Source: Candidatus Woesebacteria bacterium (GTDB lineage: Bacteria; Patescibacteriota; Microgenomatia; UBA1400; PJMF01). Taken from it: a stretch of DNA of 64,000 bases. The stretch's first letter is position 1; the number at the start of each line of letters is the position of its first letter. The stretch covers positions 553 through 64,552 of the forward strand of contig JAGOOB010000001.1 in the NCBI GenBank assembly GCA_017992725.1, read 5' to 3'. The translations under genes and the position numbers were made by a program. A model generated the notes under the pieces. The model did not search any database, had not been told where the DNA came from, and was given only the letters and a program-made list of their open reading frames with translations. Below, in pieces: positions 37,223 through 51,904 of the stretch.

Positions 37223-39475
37223 TTAATTAATGATGAAATTGAAACGGCTGGAATCTTTTGGTAATTTTTGCAATACTCGACCCATAAAAGCAGGTTGTAA
37301 AATTATTTCAGCCCGATCAATAGTTTCTTGTTCTTCTAAATTATTTTTGGCCTCTTCTAAACTTTTACCCAAAACTAGATCGTTTAATGCTTCTTGGTTA
37401 ATCTTCGCCTTAGCCTTGGCTGATAATTCAGCATCTAGAACTAAACGGTTGCTACCATCGGTCATAAGCTGAGGTTCATCGCTAAGTAAAGATGGTTCTT
37501 CATCTACAAATTCATAATTTTCCGGCAAATCTAACAATAAGACTTCTTCCGCCAATTGCTTTAAATCACTGGATGAGTATTTAACTGCTTCAACTGCCAA
37601 GGTCATTGTTAATGATAAAGTTTCTACCTCATCCCCTTCTTCATGATCGTAAGCAAAATCTACTATCCGACTCTCGCCAGTCGGCACGTAATAAACTCCG
37701 TCTTTGGACTCCTCTTTAAATTCCTTTACAGCAATCGCATACAAATTTTCTTTCAACTGATTCTGTAAATTGTCTAAATCTTTTTGAGAAACCACTCTAA
37801 TTTCCCGACTTGAGCCACCAGAAAAATCTTCAATGGCTGTAGCAGAGTAAGTATTTTCACTAAAATCAGCTACCGCTAACTTACTATCCTTGCCAATATT
37901 TCCTTCCGCCCCAATGTCTTGAGCGGTCAGCGCCACTTCAACACTACCATAATTAATATTCTGCCCATCGTCTTCTTCTTCGGAAACGGCAGCGGGGACT
38001 GTCACTTCTTCATTTAGAACAAAGGCAATGTCTTCATATTTAAAGATCGTGTTTGCTGAAAAAGTTTTATCCGTAAAAGTTTTATTAAATAATTTTACTT
38101 TGCCCTGTGCTTTATCTCCAACCAAACTGATCCCTGTAGTACTCAAGGTGTCTTCACCTTTAATTTCCTTTTCTTCTAACGAGACTTTCAATAAATTTTT
38201 AGTAAAATCCGATTCAGCCAATTGAGGATCTAAAATAATTTCTAAATTTTTTTGCAATATTCTTTCATTAGCCGTCACTTTGACTGTAACATCAGACAAA
38301 AACAAATTATAGACGAAAAATAGTGTGATCAAAGCCAACAAGCCTCCTCCCACACCGATCAGTAAAGATTTTTTATTTTTTTTGAAAAAACGTTTCAAAA
38401 CGCTACTGCTTTTACTTTTTATTTTTTTCTGATCTTGACTGTTCACAGAAGATAAATCAACAGCTTGAAGATTGTCATTAGTTATTTCTTCAGCTTGACT
38501 TTTGGCCAATGGAGTTTGCTGGTGAAGAGCTTGCTCTAAATCAATTTTCTCTGAACTTAAATCAATACCAAAACTGCTAATCTTTTTTTCTGCACTTACT
38601 AGTTCGGGCCCATTACTAGCCACATCCTGATCAGAGATATCTTTATTATCTGTACTGGTCATTTCACTAAATTCTTGAGTTAATTTTGAGGCAAAATTTT
38701 TGGACAACATGTAGCTAGCAGCCAAACTTAAGGATTTAATTAAAAAATCATTGCTTAGAACAACAAATTCTGGCATTTGTAAAAAACCTGACAATGTAGT
38801 CCAGTCAAAAGCCTGCAGTTCTGCCTGCTCTTTGTTTAACACTTTTTGGGGCAAATTTAATGAGGAAAGAAAAACCTTGTTAGGAAAATACTTGCCTTGC
38901 TCGCCTAACTCTTGACTAATTCTGGCTAAACCTTCCTGTAAATCGTCACTAAGTCTAGCGGAGCGGCCAATTTTCAAATTCGCCAGTAATTTTCCGTGTT
39001 TGATTAACAGTAAATCAAAATCTTTGTCACGTAAATAAAGAACAATCGAAGAATCATGAGGATCTTTCATAATTCTAGCTTGATGGATACCTTCTGAAAT
39101 ACTCATTTGTCCCAGAGGCAACAAACTTAAATTATCTGTTAAATCTTTAACTATCACTTTTTTGCTATCCTGTAAATCACCCTTCTCCAGCCAAGTTTCA
39201 TCAAAGACAAAAACACAGTCAGCTACTTCATCCGCCAAAGGACCTAAATCTTGTAAAGCTTGATCAAGTTGTGTTAATAAATCTTGGCGATCAAAATAAG
39301 TTTTAATTGCGGAATATTCTTTAATTTCTTGATTTTTGCTAACCAAAGCAGCTTGCAGTTCCTGATCGCTGAGAATGATGGTAATAAATAACTCAGTTTC
39401 CATCAGCTCTCCTACCGGCATTTTGGTCTCTTGCTCTTTTTTGCCTTTGATAATCTTTTTTAGTAAATTGGGCAT
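37223..39475 (-). CDS. Large hypothetical bitopic membrane protein (750 aa): ~350-aa cytoplasmic N-domain, one TM helix, ~380-aa acidic extracytoplasmic domain
   Basis: TM helix LLIGVGGGLLALITLFFVYNLFL sits mid-protein. No motif was recognised with confidence; the N-domain has a weak actin-like/PilM-like flavour but lacks a clear phosphate-binding DxG. There is no C-terminal sorting signal. Confidence 0.5.
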   Translation of the reverse strand: MPNLLKKIIKGKKEQETKMPVGELMETELFITIILSDQELQAALVSKNQEIKEYSAIKTYFDRQDLLTQLDQALQDLGPLADEVADCVFVFDETWLEKGDLQDSKKVIVKDLTDNLSLLPLGQMSISEGIHQARIMKDPHDSSIVLYLRDKDFDLLLIKHGKLLANLKIGRSARLSDDLQEGLARISQELGEQGKYFPNKVFLSSLNLPQKVLNKEQAELQAFDWTTLSGFLQMPEFVVLSNDFLIKSLSLAASYMLSKNFASKLTQEFSEMTSTDNKDISDQDVASNGPELVSAEKKISSFGIDLSSEKIDLEQALHQQTPLAKSQAEEITNDNLQAVDLSSVNSQDQKKIKSKSSSVLKRFFKKNKKSLLIGVGGGLLALITLFFVYNLFLSDVTVKVTANERILQKNLEIILDPQLAESDFTKNLLKVSLEEKEIKGEDTLSTTGISLVGDKAQGKVKLFNKTFTDKTFSANTIFKYEDIAFVLNEEVTVPAAVSEEEDDGQNINYGSVEVALTAQDIGAEGNIGKDSKLAVADFSENTYSATAIEDFSGGSSREIRVVSQKDLDNLQNQLKENLYAIAVKEFKEESKDGVYYVPTGESRIVDFAYDHEEGDEVETLSLTMTLAVEAVKYSSSDLKQLAEEVLLLDLPENYEFVDEEPSLLSDEPQLMTDGSNRLVLDAELSAKAKAKINQEALNDLVLGKSLEEAKNNLEEQETIDRAEIILQPAFMGRVLQKLPKDSSRFNFIIN

Positions 39476-39561: not shown

Positions 39562-41469
39562 TTATTCAGCTCGGAAACGCATATAAATTCTGCGTACACC
39601 TTGCGAGACGGCTTTTTCCTTAAAAATTTCCAAATCGCCAAAGCGAGCAATTTGACCAGTACTTGCGACGTGAGGACCGCCACAAAGTTCTTTAGATATC
39701 CAGTGATCAGGATCGCCAATGGTATAAACACTAACTTGATCGGGATAACGTTCAATAAAAAAAGCAATCGCTCCAGACTTGAGAGCCTCTTCCTTAGAGA
39801 GAATTTCATGCGATACCGGCAGATCTTCTTGCAACCACTGATTAACTAATTGTTCAACTGTTACCAACTCCTCTTTATTCAATGCTCGAGTATAACTAAA
39901 ATCAAAGCGTAAACGTTCACTATTAATGTTAGAACCTTTTTGCTGAACTTGATCGCCCAACACCTTTCTCAAAGCCGCTTGCAGTAGATGAGTGGCCGTG
40001 TGAAAAGCTGTTGTCTTGGCCTCATGATCAGCCAAACCACCTTTAAATCTGTCCTTAGCAGTTTGTCTAGATAAAGCAGCGTGCTGTTGATTGGCTTCAG
40101 CAATCTTACTGTCAATAGCTGGCTCAATGCTAATATTTCTTGTTTTAGCTTCTTCGATGGACAATTCAAACGGGAAACCATAGCTTTCATAAAGTGTAAA
40201 AACCAAATCGGCAGTCAATTGATCTTTATTACTAATTAAACGATTAAACTCTTTCAGACCACGTTTGAGCGTTTTGTTAAACTTTTGTTCTTCATTTTTT
40301 AAAACTTCATTAATATGTTCAGTTTTGGATTCCACTTGTGGATAAAAATCTTGATATAGATCAACTATTGCTGGGACCAGATCTGGCAAAAATTCTTGTT
40401 CTAAACCTAAATATTTGGCCTGTCTAAGCGATCGGCGAATTAAACGCCGCAAAAGATAACCTTGTTCCTTATTACTTGGCAAAACACCATCAGCAATTAG
40501 CATGACACTAGCCTTAAGATGATCAGCAATGATACGAAATGCAGCTCGTAAATCTGGATCTTGATAGTTTTTTTGACTAATTTCCTCTAATTTTTTAATA
40601 ATTCCACTAAAAGCACTGCTTTGAAAAACATCAACTTGACCTTCTAGTACAGTTAATAAACGCTCCAAACCTCCACCGAAATCAATATTTTTTTGGGCTA
40701 ATTCACGAAAGCCAGTTGCTGTCCGTTGGTATTGCATAAATACGCTGTTACCAACTTCCAAAAAGCGACCGCAATCACAATTAATGTGACATGGTTCTTG
40801 AGCAAACTTAGATTGTTGATGAAACTGCTGGGCTTGATCTGGCGCGAAATCATAAAAAACCTCACTATCAGGACCACCAGGTTCACCAAGTGGCATCGTC
40901 GCTGGCACCCCAGATCTTGACCACCAATTTTTTTCTTCACCATAAAAGAAAATTCTACCTCCTTGTAAGCCAGCTTGTGGCTGATCAACAATTTTTGCTT
41001 CAATGCCTCTTTTTTGGAACAAATCTTGCCAAATGAGCGCACTTTCTTCGTCTTTGGGAATATTTAAAGCCTTGTTGCCAGCAAAAACCGATACATAAAG
41101 TCGAGAGGGGTCCAGTTGCAAAACATCAACTAAAAATTCAAAAAAGAAGGTAATTTGCTCTTGCTTAAAATAATCACCAAAAGACCAATTGCCCAACATT
41201 TCAAAAAACGTCGTGTGACGATTGTCTCCAACTTTATCTATATCTTCACTACGGAAACATTTTTGTGAATTAGCGATTCTTTGACCCTGTGGGTGTTTTT
41301 CCCCAAGTAAATAAGGAATCATCGCTTGCATTCCAGCACTTGTAAACAAAGTACTAGGATCATTTTCTGGTACTAAATTTGCCGAAGGCACTATTGCATG
41401 CCCTCTCTTAGCAAAATAATCTAAATATAAACGACGGAGACTAGATAAAGTTAGAGTATTACTAGACAT
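39562..41469 (-). CDS. alaS: Alanine--tRNA ligase, short form (catalytic, tRNA-recognition and editing domains; no C-Ala domain)
   Basis: Class II core (FTSAGMQAMIPYLLG, FFEMLGNWSFGDYFK) and editing-domain motifs HTATHLL and CGGPHV. It is 635 aa against about 870 for canonical AlaS. Confidence 0.85.
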   Translation of the reverse strand: MSSNTLTLSSLRRLYLDYFAKRGHAIVPSANLVPENDPSTLFTSAGMQAMIPYLLGEKHPQGQRIANSQKCFRSEDIDKVGDNRHTTFFEMLGNWSFGDYFKQEQITFFFEFLVDVLQLDPSRLYVSVFAGNKALNIPKDEESALIWQDLFQKRGIEAKIVDQPQAGLQGGRIFFYGEEKNWWSRSGVPATMPLGEPGGPDSEVFYDFAPDQAQQFHQQSKFAQEPCHINCDCGRFLEVGNSVFMQYQRTATGFRELAQKNIDFGGGLERLLTVLEGQVDVFQSSAFSGIIKKLEEISQKNYQDPDLRAAFRIIADHLKASVMLIADGVLPSNKEQGYLLRRLIRRSLRQAKYLGLEQEFLPDLVPAIVDLYQDFYPQVESKTEHINEVLKNEEQKFNKTLKRGLKEFNRLISNKDQLTADLVFTLYESYGFPFELSIEEAKTRNISIEPAIDSKIAEANQQHAALSRQTAKDRFKGGLADHEAKTTAFHTATHLLQAALRKVLGDQVQQKGSNINSERLRFDFSYTRALNKEELVTVEQLVNQWLQEDLPVSHEILSKEEALKSGAIAFFIERYPDQVSVYTIGDPDHWISKELCGGPHVASTGQIARFGDLEIFKEKAVSQGVRRIYMRFRAE

Positions 41470-43580: not shown

Positions 43581-44252
43581 GTGAAAAAATTTTCTATTGC
43601 TCAAATTTGCCAAGCTTTGATCTTTCCTGATTTTTGTCAACACTGTCAACAATTAGGACCAATGTTGTGTGAGTCTTGCTATCAATTGATTGATTTTTTT
43701 TGGCAAGAGGATTACAAAGAATTTTTTAGTGAAAATTTTGATCAAGTTTACTTCGATCAAGTAAAAATCATGGCTGCTTTCAAACCACCCCTTAGTTCGC
43801 TGATTAAAGCACTCAAATATCATCACCACAGTCGAGCTGCTAAATTTTTAGCCCAGATGCTCTATTTTTACGTCAACATTGATTATCACAATATCGACAT
43901 TATTAGCTTCGTACCCATGCATCCACAAAAAAGAAAAAAGAGAGGCTACAACCAGACCCAATTGATTGCTCAAGAATTATCCCTGTGGAGTCAAACACCC
44001 TGTTTAGAATTATTGGTAAAAAGCAAAAATACAAAACCTCAAGCCCAAATTACTAACAAGGATAAAAGATTGAAAAGATTGAAAGACAGCTTTGCCATTT
44101 CCACTTTCTATCAAAATGCTTTATTTAAGCAAAATATTTTACTAATTGATGATGTGATTACCACTGGAGCTACTAGCAATAATGTCAGCCAAATCCTCAA
44201 AAATAATGGAGCCAATTCCATAACAGTATTGGCTTTAGCTTCTAAATTATAA
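43581..44252 (+). CDS. comFC: ComF family protein (ComFC-like): N-terminal zinc ribbon plus phosphoribosyltransferase domain
   Basis: Cys pairs (CQHCQQ...CESC) and the PRTase PRPP-binding motif LLIDDVITTGAT. GTG start at 43581. Confidence 0.75.
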   Translation: MKKFSIAQICQALIFPDFCQHCQQLGPMLCESCYQLIDFFWQEDYKEFFSENFDQVYFDQVKIMAAFKPPLSSLIKALKYHHHSRAAKFLAQMLYFYVNIDYHNIDIISFVPMHPQKRKKRGYNQTQLIAQELSLWSQTPCLELLVKSKNTKPQAQITNKDKRLKRLKDSFAISTFYQNALFKQNILLIDDVITTGATSNNVSQILKNNGANSITVLALASKL

Positions 44253-44268: not shown

Positions 44269-44297
44269 TTGAATTCCTCGAGAGAAAATGCTATAAT
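44269..44297 (+). promoter_or_regulatory. Near-consensus sigma70-type promoter driving ssrA (tmRNA)
   Basis: TTGAAT (44269-44274), a 17-nt spacer, then TATAAT (44292-44297). The mature tmRNA 5' end lies 17 nt downstream of the -10 hexamer. Confidence 0.55.
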
Positions 44298-44313
44298 CAG
44301 GCGTTCATTAACA

Positions 44314-44715
44314 GGGGATGTATTGCATTGACGTCAGTCAACTTTAATCATCGCAGATCATCTTTGGTGAAAAGATGTCAAACAGCACCAATAAATAACT
44401 GTCAAAAACAGTTTAAAAACAGTAGCTAATAAAATCGCCAGTCTTTTTGACTTCGGTTATGTAGCTGCTCCAGCTTTTGCTTAATTGCAATTGCTGGCAT
44501 CTAGTGATGGGCTCTTATCGGCGACTCACATTAGGTGACAACCCAGTCGATTGGCAGAAATAAAGAAGCAGATCGCTTTATTTCCAAGAATATGATCTGG
44601 ATGAAACAAAAAAAGTTTGTTTATTCACTTATTGTTTCAAATCAAAAATAAACTAAATCTGTAGAGATCGTTAAAGATTGATTAGCGGACGCGGGAGCAA
44701 AACCCGCCATCTCCA
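44314..44715 (+). ncRNA. ssrA: Transfer-messenger RNA (tmRNA, SsrA)
   Basis: 5' GGGGATG pairs with 3' CATCTCC-A, including a G3:U wobble (the alanine identity element). The 3' GGACGCGGG-(7-nt loop)-CCCGCC block matches the E. coli tmRNA T-arm stem exactly. An internal ORF reads ...IASLFDFGYVAAPAFA-TAA (44425/44437-44484), a plausible proteolysis tag. CCA is only partly encoded. Confidence 0.75.
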
Positions 44716-44750
44716 CAAAACACTATTTATAGCTTTTAATAAATGATTTT

Positions 44751-46133
44751 TTAAAGCTCTATATCTAAGCAATGGTGCTTTTGACAAATGTTATTTTCTA
44801 AAGATTCTTTTATTTTTAACTCATCACTTGAATAAGCTTGGTTCATAATAAAAAAAACATTTCTACTGGCTAAGCTCAATAATTCATTCTGCAAGTTTTG
44901 ATTTTGTGAACTATCTCTTTCAATTAAGTAAACGGAAGAATTATTTTTATTAATTAATAGGTAATAACTAATTAAATCAACGTCATCCATAAGTAGCACA
45001 ATGCTGTTTGATGGAATTTTTTGTTTAATTGTATTTTGAATATTTTCCCTAAATAAAAAGCCATAGTTATTAAAAGAATTAATCGCCAAGATTAATAAAG
45101 TTATCATCATAAAAAACTCATAACGCAATTTTTGATGAAATTGGGCAAAAACGAATACAACCAATAAACTAAATAACACTAATTGTCTGGCTAAAAAAAC
45201 TGGAAAAAATAAAATCGAGATAATAGTCGCCAAACCAATTGTGCCCGTAGACGAAAAAAATAAAAATTGATTAATTAACGATTTGTCTTTCTTTAAATTA
45301 GTTGTAATTATTACCAAAAATAGCGGAAAATAAAAACCAACGAAGTCATGACCAAACAATAATTTTGTTTGATATACAAACCAATTTAAATCAAAATAAG
45401 GTACACTTCCAGCAATAGCATTACCATTTTTAATGGGTAACAAATAATTTAACAAAATACAAATTTGATAAATAGAGCAAACAAAAAATAAAAACAAACT
45501 GCAAAATATATTTTTACTATGCATCTTTTCTTTTTTAAAAAACAAGAAAATAGCCAAAAAAAACAGTGAAAAAATTAACCAAATAACTCCATAACTAATA
45601 AAAAAACAGATACTTAATAAGAAGCCAATTAAAATAGTTTTATAAACTTTTGGGTAAAAAAAGTTAGAAAAAATGACATAAATTAACAAAAGCATCAAAA
45701 AAATTAATAAAGCATAAGGTCGAACTTGAAAAGACAAATTAATTAATAATGGATGTAGAGAAAATAAACTTATTGCTAAATAACTAGTCTTACGACTTTT
45801 GAAAAATAAACTAATTCTATAAACTAAGTAAATGCTTGGAAAAAACCAAATCAGACTGGTCAAACGTAACCACCAATCCGCATGCCCAATTATTAACATT
45901 AATTTTAAATAAATATAATATAGAGGTGGATGCCTAAAATCGGAAAAATTCCCATTCGAAAAAAATAATTCCCTCCAGCTTAAGTCTGTTGAATTAAAAT
46001 AGGAAATTGCTTCATCATTCCAAAAATCAGTGGTCAATCCATAATAAAAACGAATAATTAACCCAATTAAAAAACTAATTACAGCAATAATTAGCCATCT
46101 ATTTCGACTTACCGATAACCGCATTCTCCCCAT
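44751..46133 (-). CDS. GT-C fold membrane glycosyltransferase (GT39/GT83-like, PMT/ArnT family)
   Basis: 460 aa, about 11-12 TM helices, with a DE motif in the first extracytoplasmic loop (FWNDEAISY) typical of the PMT/ArnT family. Very AT-rich codon usage. Confidence 0.6.
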   Translation of the reverse strand: MGRMRLSVSRNRWLIIAVISFLIGLIIRFYYGLTTDFWNDEAISYFNSTDLSWRELFFSNGNFSDFRHPPLYYIYLKLMLIIGHADWWLRLTSLIWFFPSIYLVYRISLFFKSRKTSYLAISLFSLHPLLINLSFQVRPYALLIFLMLLLIYVIFSNFFYPKVYKTILIGFLLSICFFISYGVIWLIFSLFFLAIFLFFKKEKMHSKNIFCSLFLFFVCSIYQICILLNYLLPIKNGNAIAGSVPYFDLNWFVYQTKLLFGHDFVGFYFPLFLVIITTNLKKDKSLINQFLFFSSTGTIGLATIISILFFPVFLARQLVLFSLLVVFVFAQFHQKLRYEFFMMITLLILAINSFNNYGFLFRENIQNTIKQKIPSNSIVLLMDDVDLISYYLLINKNNSSVYLIERDSSQNQNLQNELLSLASRNVFFIMNQAYSSDELKIKESLENNICQKHHCLDIEL

Positions 46134-50839: not shown

Positions 50840-51904
50840 CTAATAACTAGGCAGGAAAATCTTAACATTATCTGGTTTAATCACCACTTCTTCAAAGCCT
50901 CGTTCCACAATAATTCTAGCGGCTTTTCTTACCGCACCTTTAAGCGTGCGTTGTAACGTACGTACTCCAGCATCAAAACCTAAAGGTCTAACTAACTTAG
51001 GCCAAACCGCTTCATCAATCTTAAATTGGTTTTCTTTCAAACCAGCTTCTTTGAGAATTTCAGGCAAAATATACTTTTTGGCAATCACAATTTTCTCTTC
51101 ATCACTGTAGGACGGCATATCAATTCGTTCCATCCGGTCTAAAACAGCGGCTGAAATACGACGGGTGTTGTTACAAGTGGCAATAAAAATCGCTTGACTT
51201 AAATCTACCGGATAATTAATGTAATTATCGACAAAAGCATGATTTTGCGCAGGATCTAGCAGTTCAACCAGAACACCCATAATATCATTATTGGCTTCTT
51301 CCGCGGATCGATCGATTTCATCAAGTAAAATCACTGGATTCATCGTTTGGGCAGTACAAAGACCCTGAATTACCGCCCCAGGTTGAGCCTCCAAAATTAA
51401 GCGTGATTCACCACGCAATTCTTTGGCAGAAGCCATTCCTCCAACCGGAATTCTTAAAATTTGGCGGTTCAGGGCTTCCGCTAAAGAATATGCAAAAGTA
51501 GTTTTACCTGTTCCTACCAAACCAACTAGCAATAATACTGGCGCAGAAAATTCCTGATCAGCAAAATTTTGTTTTTGTAAATTAAGAATAGCTAAATACT
51601 CCAAAAATCGATCTTTAACCTCTTTTAAACCATAATGATGTTCATCAAGAACTACTTTAGCCTGTTGAATGTCTAAAGTGTCTTCACTTTTTTTACCAAA
51701 TGGGATCTTGGTTACCCAGTCTAAGTATCGAGAAACTTTATCATATTTCTCGTCATAATTGCCCAATTTTGCACTCCGCTCCAAAAAAACTAATTCTTTT
51801 TCCAGCTTTGATTGTAATTCTTCGGGAAGTTGAACTTGTTTAATTTTAGCTCGTAACTCATCAAGCTCCTGATTCAATATTTCATCAGAGTTAAGTTCAG
51901 ACAT
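50840..51904 (-). CDS. Lon-derived AAA+ ATPase: coiled-coil plus AAA+ module only, no N-terminal substrate domain and no protease domain
   Basis: YLDWVTKIPFGKKSE ... HYGLKEVKDRFLEYLA ... LLLVGLVGTGKT ... LLDEID ... VELLDP ... FIATCN ... DRME ... AGVRTLQR align motif-for-motif with the LonA AAA+ module. The protein ends where the Lon proteolytic domain would start. Confidence 0.8.
   Translation of the reverse strand: MSELNSDEILNQELDELRAKIKQVQLPEELQSKLEKELVFLERSAKLGNYDEKYDKVSRYLDWVTKIPFGKKSEDTLDIQQAKVVLDEHHYGLKEVKDRFLEYLAILNLQKQNFADQEFSAPVLLLVGLVGTGKTTFAYSLAEALNRQILRIPVGGMASAKELRGESRLILEAQPGAVIQGLCTAQTMNPVILLDEIDRSAEEANNDIMGVLVELLDPAQNHAFVDNYINYPVDLSQAIFIATCNNTRRISAAVLDRMERIDMPSYSDEEKIVIAKKYILPEILKEAGLKENQFKIDEAVWPKLVRPLGFDAGVRTLQRTLKGAVRKAARIIVERGFEEVVIKPDNVKIFLPSY

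Follow-up and report, generated by a model that had tools for sequence, protein, structure and literature searches.

One-piece transfer-messenger RNAs (tmRNAs) of the Escherichia coli ssrA type combine an acceptor stem bearing a G3.U70 pair and a discriminator A with a stemless D-loop analog followed by GAC, a T-stem, a tag open reading frame (ORF), a stop-codon helix and a pseudoknot-rich body. All of these elements, the pseudoknots as predicted from alignment, are shared by the tmRNA gene described here, which lies in a 64,000-nucleotide stretch of DNA from Candidatus Woesebacteria bacterium (Patescibacteriota; GenBank assembly GCA_017992725.1, contig JAGOOB010000001.1, positions 553 to 64,552 of the forward strand; this whole stretch is called the window below). 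The gene differs from that of E. coli in its T-loop (AGCAAAA, not UUCAACU), in the D-loop analog (GC in place of G13 G14), in the resume codon (GUC, not GCA) and in the length of the tag (27 codons against 10), and it encodes only the first C of CCA.

Two other described systems bear on this comparison. Mycoplasma tmRNA tags are long, end in ...FAFA and are reported to be directed to Lon; the tag of the window, with about 27 residues and an -AFA ending, is likewise long and similarly terminated. The heptamer GGCRGUA is a recognised T-loop signature of alphaproteobacterial tmRNAs, although no paper was found by a full-text literature search for this string, and GGCAGTA or GGCGGTA loops are seen in SAR11, Sphingomonas and others. 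Residues U341 and U342 of E. coli tmRNA correspond to GG in the mitochondrial tmRNA of the jakobid Reclinomonas, and U342 corresponds to G in Caulobacter (PMC1168896). The window tmRNA shares with this alphaproteobacterial and jakobid type a T-loop without U54 and U55 that keeps G55-C56-R57 and A60 (tRNA numbering). It differs in being one-piece and unpermuted, in carrying A rather than G at positions 54 and 58 and A rather than U at 59, and in coming from an unrelated phylum. In particular, the two-piece class is defined by a permuted gene with GGCRGUA, as in the SAR11 loci with GGCAGTA, whereas the window gene is colinear and has AGCAAAA. The window T-loop is a modest novelty: the RNA is well known, and altered loops of this kind have been described before, in Alphaproteobacteria and in a mitochondrion. 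What follows refines a well-understood system and does not describe a new one.

The ssrA gene of the window

The explanation that we favor, and consider quite probable, is that the window carries a functional ssrA of Candidatus Woesebacteria in which the loop AGCAAAA is fixed within the clade, the elbow pair at C56 is kept and the other T-loop contacts are relaxed. The presence of a tmRNA, the core of the original prediction, was confirmed by the Rfam covariance model RF00023, which matches positions 44314-44718 of the plus strand over its full length (model positions 1-374 of 374) with 97.5 bits, above the curated gathering score of 47 (E 7.8e-37). The model places the T-arm, with its loop AGCAAAA, unambiguously. 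ARAGORN, the other program with which the prediction was to be checked, called two tRNAs and no tmRNA over the window. The ssrA strand folds more stably than all 100 of its shuffled versions (z = -5.4). Both tRNAs of the window have canonical GGTTCGA T-loops, and thus the deviation is specific to the tmRNA. The features of the gene are as follows.

44269..44297, plus strand: predicted sigma-70-like promoter of ssrA, with -35 TTGAAT (44269-74), a 17-nt spacer and an extended -10 TGcTATAAT (TATAAT at 44292-97)
44314..44715, plus strand: one-piece tmRNA (ssrA), 402 nt from 5' G44314 to the discriminator A, before CCA completion; from RF00023, fold z-score and compensatory pairs
44314..44320, plus strand: 5' strand of the acceptor stem, GGGGAUG; G3 (44316) wobbles with U44712 (G3.U70)
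44321..44332, plus strand: D-loop analog UAUUGCAUU (44321-29) and conserved GAC (44330-32); from the covariance-model alignment and alignment A1 (see below)
44358..44389, plus strand: predicted pseudoknot 1 region, hairpin CAUCUUU/AAAGAUG; GGUG (44366-69) can pair with CACC (44386-89)
44401..44484, plus strand: tag frame, from resume codon GUC (44401-03) through 27 codons (VKNSLKTVANKIASLFDFGYVAAPAFA) to stop TAA (44482-84)
44471..44498, plus strand: helix 5, the stop-codon stem-loop CCAGC...GCUGG; from the covariance model and alignment columns 179-226
44499..44655, plus strand: predicted pseudoknot domain, region of pseudoknots 2 to 4; from the covariance-model alignment
44691..44707, plus strand: T-arm, stem GCGGG (44691-95) / CCCGC (44703-07) and 7-nt loop AGCAAAA (44696-702)
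44708..44715, plus strand: 3' strand of the acceptor stem, CAUCUCC (44708-14), and discriminator A44715, then CAAAAC

The span first proposed, 44269-44715, ends exactly at the discriminator A but starts too early, as 44269 is the first base of the -35 hexamer and the RNA is predicted to begin at G44314. A consensus scan found 10 of 12 matches to the promoter consensus plus the TG of the extended -10, and the same TTGAnT / TGnTAtAAT pair stands at equal distance from the GGGG 5' end in five relatives (L121, L124, L130, L132, and L127); this segment likely acts as the ssrA promoter.

The loop reads A54 G55 C56 A57 A58 A59 A60. Compared with the pattern T54-Psi55-C56-R57-A58-N-Y, which is typical and not universal, only C56, R57 and A58 fit: the loop departs at 54 and 55 and has a purine at 60, where a pyrimidine is usual (59 being unconstrained). 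Both the seven-nucleotide non-canonical loop and the identity of its stem with that of E. coli ssrA had been correctly noted at the outset; the E. coli 3' end, GGACGCGGGTTCAACTCCCGCCAGCTCCACCA, is present in 5422 of 5426 E. coli genomes under ssrA annotation and has the same GCGGG/CCCGC stem. Pairs of this stem covary in outgroups. The whole 3' region reads GGAC-GCGGG-AGCAAAA-CCCGC-CAUCUCC-A, then CAAAAC. As had been predicted from this end, CCA must be completed enzymatically, since only C74 is encoded; a full CCA is encoded in the L121-123 group only, and the other relatives, like the window, have C74 alone.

At the other side of the elbow, the D-loop analog has one G (G12, 44325), against GG in the consensus. 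Together with GCGGAC ahead of the T-arm, the stemless UAUUGCAUU-GAC would form the SmpB-binding elbow. In E. coli tmRNA, SmpB contacts A15, U17, G19, and A334 (PMC8363625), and it occupies the position of the D-arm (PMC3968760). Counterparts of all these contacted residues are present in the window tmRNA by our own reading of the alignment.

Alignment A1 comprises 12 sequences, with helix pairs predicted by RNAalifold; tmRNAs of the relatives range from 94% down to 55% identity to that of the window. The acceptor stem is tRNA-Ala-like (seven pairs, G3.U70, discriminator A73), and its seven pairs, the third of them G-U, are invariant in 12 of 12 aligned sequences. Compensatory changes, counted when at least one sequence has both sides changed with pairing kept, occur in 51 of the 89 predicted pairs, and thus ssrA is under structural selection and is not a remnant. 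They include the pseudoknot 1 hairpin (columns 48-54/62-68) and many pairs of the nested hairpins in the region of pseudoknots 2 to 4, throughout which the covariance model aligns. The second stem of pseudoknot 1, GGUG/CACC, is a candidate taken from sequence and covariance-model alignment.

The resume codon GUC aligns with the consensus resume codon of the covariance model, and the internal ORF that it opens has a hydrophobic, Ala-rich C-terminus and a stop codon in helix 5. Its end, ...GYVAAPAFA followed by TAA, is as originally read. The frame itself had been left ambiguous owing to a TAATAA double stop in another frame; that alternative was rejected, since relatives do not keep it, whereas one open frame from the aligned GUC or GCC to the stop is kept in 12 relatives and in further ones, and in the outgroup L137 this frame is also the one called by ARAGORN. 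In relatives the tag spans 25-34 codons with conservative substitutions along its length and hydrophobic C-termini (PAFA, LAFC, LAYC, LAFS, LAYA, and VLA). Tags open with GUC (Val) in the clade of the window and its closer relatives, and with GCC (Ala) as resume codon in outgroups.

A 354-aa ORF of the window (50840-51904, minus strand) has an AAA+ and a Lon lid domain and lacks the Lon protease domain. This Lon-like ORF may be relevant to the question of which protease reads the long -AFA tag.

Loop states among relatives and in wider scans

The AlaRS (alanyl-tRNA synthetase) and FtsK of the window match exactly proteins listed by NCBI under Candidatus Woesebacteria bacterium. A gene for a ComF-family phosphoribosyltransferase lies upstream of ssrA (43581-44252). 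We sampled relatives through ComF homologues and the conserved order ComF-ssrA-FtsK, a procedure blind to the T-loop, and placed the ends of their tmRNAs by pairing rules and not by Rfam. The order conserved on the contigs of the relatives is AlaRS, YqeY, tRNA-Val, ComF, ssrA, FtsK, and RNase J. Grouped by ComF identity to the window, the T-loops are as follows (L numbers denote loci).

ComF identity 53-74% (L121-125, L130-132): T-loop AGCAAAA
ComF identity 49% (L127): T-loop CTCAAAA
ComF identity 44-49% (L128, L133, L135, L263-265): T-loop GTCATAA
ComF identity 33-39% (L137-140, L261-262): T-loop TTCATTG or TTCACTG

The loop AGCAAAA is found in all relatives with ComF identity of at least 53%; in this Woesebacteria clade it is fixed and inherited. 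These loci were drawn from independent NCBI, JGI, ENA, and Logan assemblies, which excludes an assembly error. More generally, loop state tracks relatedness, from TTCAYTG through GTCATAA and CTCAAAA to AGCAAAA, a series ordered by relatedness and not by the order of change. The flanking helices stay constant: the acceptor stem GGGGAUG/CAUCUCC is present in all ComF-linked relatives, and the T-stem GCGGG/CCCGC in all except the most distant. The outgroup loops also lack A58.

Two wider scans, both restricted to loops with a base other than T at position 54, were used to survey further loops. The genome scan covered one genome per GTDB species with the pattern CGGACGNGGG-V-N6-CCCNCCNNCTCCA; the metagenome scan used the acceptor stem CCATCTCCA only. 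Among the 120 genome matches listed, GGCAGTA accounts for 98, mostly in SAR11, and the matches listed outside SAR11 are mostly from Patescibacteria. The loops listed for Saccharibacteria are GGCAGTA, GGCGGTA, GGTAGTT, GTCGATA, and GTCGTTA, those for genomes labelled 'Patescibacteria group' are AGAATTA and ATCAATA, and Paceibacteria have CTCAATT, with isolated matches in other phyla. Of 18 Patescibacteria loci scanned with Rfam, 17 contain a full-length one-piece tmRNA. These RNAs resemble that of the window in being one-piece, in passing RF00023, in having non-U54 loops (GGCRGUA and GUCGAUA in Saccharibacteria, CUCAAUU in Paceibacteria, AGAAUUA and AUCAAUA in the 'Patescibacteria group') on a conserved GGG/CCC T-stem and in escaping ARAGORN in most of the cases tested; they differ from it in the loops themselves and in the D-loop analogs, and some lack C56 and the D-loop G together. 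Literature combining tmRNA with Patescibacteria or the candidate phyla radiation and the T-loop yielded no description of these loops.

The metagenome scan gave at least 45 different loops among the 120 matches listed, nearly all with C56; the counts among these matches are CTCATTA 11, CTCAATA 9, CTCAAAA 5, AGCAATA 4, AGCAAAA 3, and GTCATAA 3, followed by others. In view of the many non-T54 loops in both scans, and of the GG and G variants of PMC1168896, the original description of TTCRANY as near-universal is overstated for tmRNA.

To see what is retained, we examined 93 unique D/T combinations, each of a D-loop analog with its T-loop. C56 is present in 88, position 57 is nearly always a purine, positions 54, 55, 58, 59, and 60 are variable, and the D-loop analog usually has one G instead of the GG of the consensus. 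The remaining five (AGAATTA twice, AGAATTG, GGAAGTA, and GGTAGTT), which have no C56, are all devoid of G in the D-loop analog. Among the 88 with C56 the same holds for 3 (Fisher p ~1e-6, uncorrected for phylogeny), and two of these three look like parsing artefacts.

The tmRNAs lacking C56, with loops AGAAUUA, AGAAUUG, GGAAGUA, and GGUAGUU and without any D-loop G, come from L039 (1634-1663), L066 (4244-4273), L196, L205, L216, and L019/L067. In the GGUAGUU tmRNA the D-loop sequence UACC is complementary to GGUA. The pattern suggests that in these RNAs the elbow pair has been swapped or lost in concert. One-piece tmRNAs of Saccharibacteria with GGCAGUA or GGCGGUA were found in L007 (7447-7476, minus strand), L027, L041, L042, L049, L056, L061, L063, L074, and L097, where the D-loop analog is AAUUUUAAGCUC. 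The match of their GGCRGUA loops with the signature of the alphaproteobacterial two-piece RNAs, in an unrelated phylum, looks like convergence.

Elbow function and alternative explanations

If the gene works as we propose, transcription of ssrA would start at a sigma-70-like promoter of its own. Cleavage by RNase P would generate the 5' end at G44314, and trimming would leave A44715-C44716 at the other end, where a CCA-adding enzyme would complete CCA. AlaRS would charge the RNA with alanine through G3.U70 and the discriminator A73, both of which are present. SmpB would bind the stemless D-loop analog and the GAC/GGAC junction, and EF-Tu, binding the strictly conserved acceptor and T stems, would deliver the tmRNA to stalled ribosomes. 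Translation would then resume at GUC 44401, and the 27-residue tag ending in AAPAFA would mark the product for proteolysis.

Since C56 and a G of the D-loop analog tend to occur together, the elbow pair of the tRNA G19:C56 type likely persists, here as G12:C56. The U54.A58 and Psi55-G18 contacts seem dispensable for tmRNA here, probably because SmpB holds the elbow in place of the D-arm: with SmpB in that role, the T-loop would need only the stacking pair at 56. The tRNAs of the same genome would have no such chaperone, which may explain why they stay canonical. The series of loops by clade on an invariant T-stem indicates that tmRNA can spare positions 54, 55, and 58-60 while keeping C56, R57, and the D-loop G, and it offers ready-made variants for probing which features of the tmRNA elbow are recognised by SmpB, EF-Tu and the ribosome.

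Several observations weigh against this explanation. Both scans, with at least 120 matches each, were preselected for non-T54 loops and show diversity and not frequency. The association of C56 with the D-loop G counts unique sequences and not independent events, and at least three lineages lack C56. Even the most divergent tmRNA of the AGCAAAA clade shares 70.6% identity with that of the window, so that the constancy of seven loop bases is weak evidence that the loop itself is under selection. Loss of U54 and Psi55 might be expected to hurt. A six-frame motif scan, a weak test, found no SmpB motif in the 64-kb window. Finally, expression, alanylation, and tagging of the window tmRNA are predictions from its sequence.

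Another possibility, which we regard as unlikely, is that the elbow has been rebuilt, either through a four-pair kissing helix between UUGC of the D-loop (44323-26) and GCAA of the T-loop (44697-700), or through a GNRA-type turn of G55-C56-A57-A58 that replaces the Psi55 U-turn. UUGC is indeed the exact reverse complement of GCAA, and the C-to-U change to UUGU in two relatives (L124 and L130) keeps the pairing as U.G. However, roughly one in ten pairs of such short loops would show a four-base complement by chance alone, and the proposed pair is broken by U55 in the sister loops CTCAAAA and GTCATAA, which share the D-loop UUGC. When the D-loops and T-loops of 71 unique D/T combinations were shuffled, 83 of 1000 shuffles reached the observed mean complementarity anchored on position 56, so that the real pairings do not exceed the shuffled ones. 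In favor of a rebuilt elbow, GCAA or GCGA also occupies positions 55-58 of several other G55 loops (AGCAATA, CGCAACT, CGCAATT, and CGCGATA), and GNRA loops and U-turns, as Jucker and Pardi are said to have noted in 1995, share backbone geometry. Against it, no association was seen between G55 and a pyrimidine following the D-loop G (p = 0.26). Less probable still is the proposal that loop diversity reflects not neutral drift but escape from mobile elements that read the T-loop or 3' end of ssrA, such as integrases that use it as attB or group I introns that home into the T-loop. Group I introns do insert at several positions of the tmRNA T-loop (PMC11915505), many different loops occur on identical stems, and the segment just 3' of ssrA varies among relatives and holds a low-GC gene in the window. 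On the other hand, the window was found to hold no integrase, no intron and no second copy of the ssrA 3' end, no loop state could be linked to the presence or absence of an element, and drift with C56 and R57 retained is the simpler account. The least probable explanation by far, and one that we rejected, is a decaying ssrA remnant or pseudogene, or a loop produced by an assembly or alignment artefact with the canonical loop elsewhere. The absence of an ARAGORN call, of an encoded CCA and of an SmpB motif in the window would agree with it, but it is opposed by the full-length covariance-model match with its unambiguous T-arm, the compensatory pairs, the conserved tag ORF and promoter, and the identical loop in many independent assemblies; most relatives also lack an encoded CCA.

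Beyond the functional, clade-fixed ssrA that we favor for the window, a generalization to the phylum can be put forward tentatively, as a possibility that we doubt more than we credit. The tmRNAs of Patescibacteria as a group may have a T-loop freed from the T54-Psi55...A58 fold, with only the C56:G elbow pair kept in general, and even that pair swapped or lost in a few lineages, and some, possibly that of the window, may have a GNRA-like turn or a D/T kissing helix. If true, this would provide a natural mutational series for the minimal elbow needed by SmpB, EF-Tu, RNase P, the CCA-adding enzyme, and the ribosome.

Gene detection and neighboring genes

Besides the window, ARAGORN, which misses the tmRNA there, was run on 17 loci with related or other tmRNAs; it misses 13 of these and finds four. 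Named among the misses are L121, L124, L127, L128, L132, L133, L135, L140, L039, L051, L066, L117, and, from Saccharibacteria, L007 and L027 with their GGCAGTA/GGCGGTA loops, both of which Rfam detects. The genes found are those of L137 (TTCATTG), L095 and L118 (GTCGATA and GTCGTTA) and the permuted SAR11 gene in L003. The outgroup tmRNA of L140 (3683-4127, 445 nt, loop TTCACTG) is missed despite a loop that starts with TTC, and thus the T-loop is not the sole reason for the failure. The main practical consequence is that pipelines relying on ARAGORN would record too few ssrA genes in Patescibacteria, and trans-translation could then wrongly be claimed to be absent from them.

Between ssrA and ftsK the window has a 460-aa PMT_2-family membrane glycosyltransferase-like gene (44751-46133, minus strand), with 28.5% GC against about 37% elsewhere. 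At the same position L121 has nothing, and L124, L130, L127, and L135 have different small ORFs; given this differing content, the site 3' of ssrA is a variable spot. Integration of the low-GC gene at ssrA was considered and rejected, as no second ssrA 3' end with up to 3 mismatches is present in the window and the gene belongs to the PMT_2 family and is not an integrase.

The C-Ala domain of AlaRS contacts the tRNA elbow. The AlaRS of the window (39562-41469, minus strand; 635 aa) has the catalytic core and the tRNA_SAD editing module and lacks the C-terminal C-Ala/DHHA1 domain, and its homologues in relatives (626-656 aa) have the same two Pfam families. Absence of C-Ala could remove one reader of the T-loop/D-loop corner. 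The adjoining 750-aa ORF (37223-39475, minus strand) has no confident Pfam family and gives a sub-threshold match to Baseplate_J (E 0.008).

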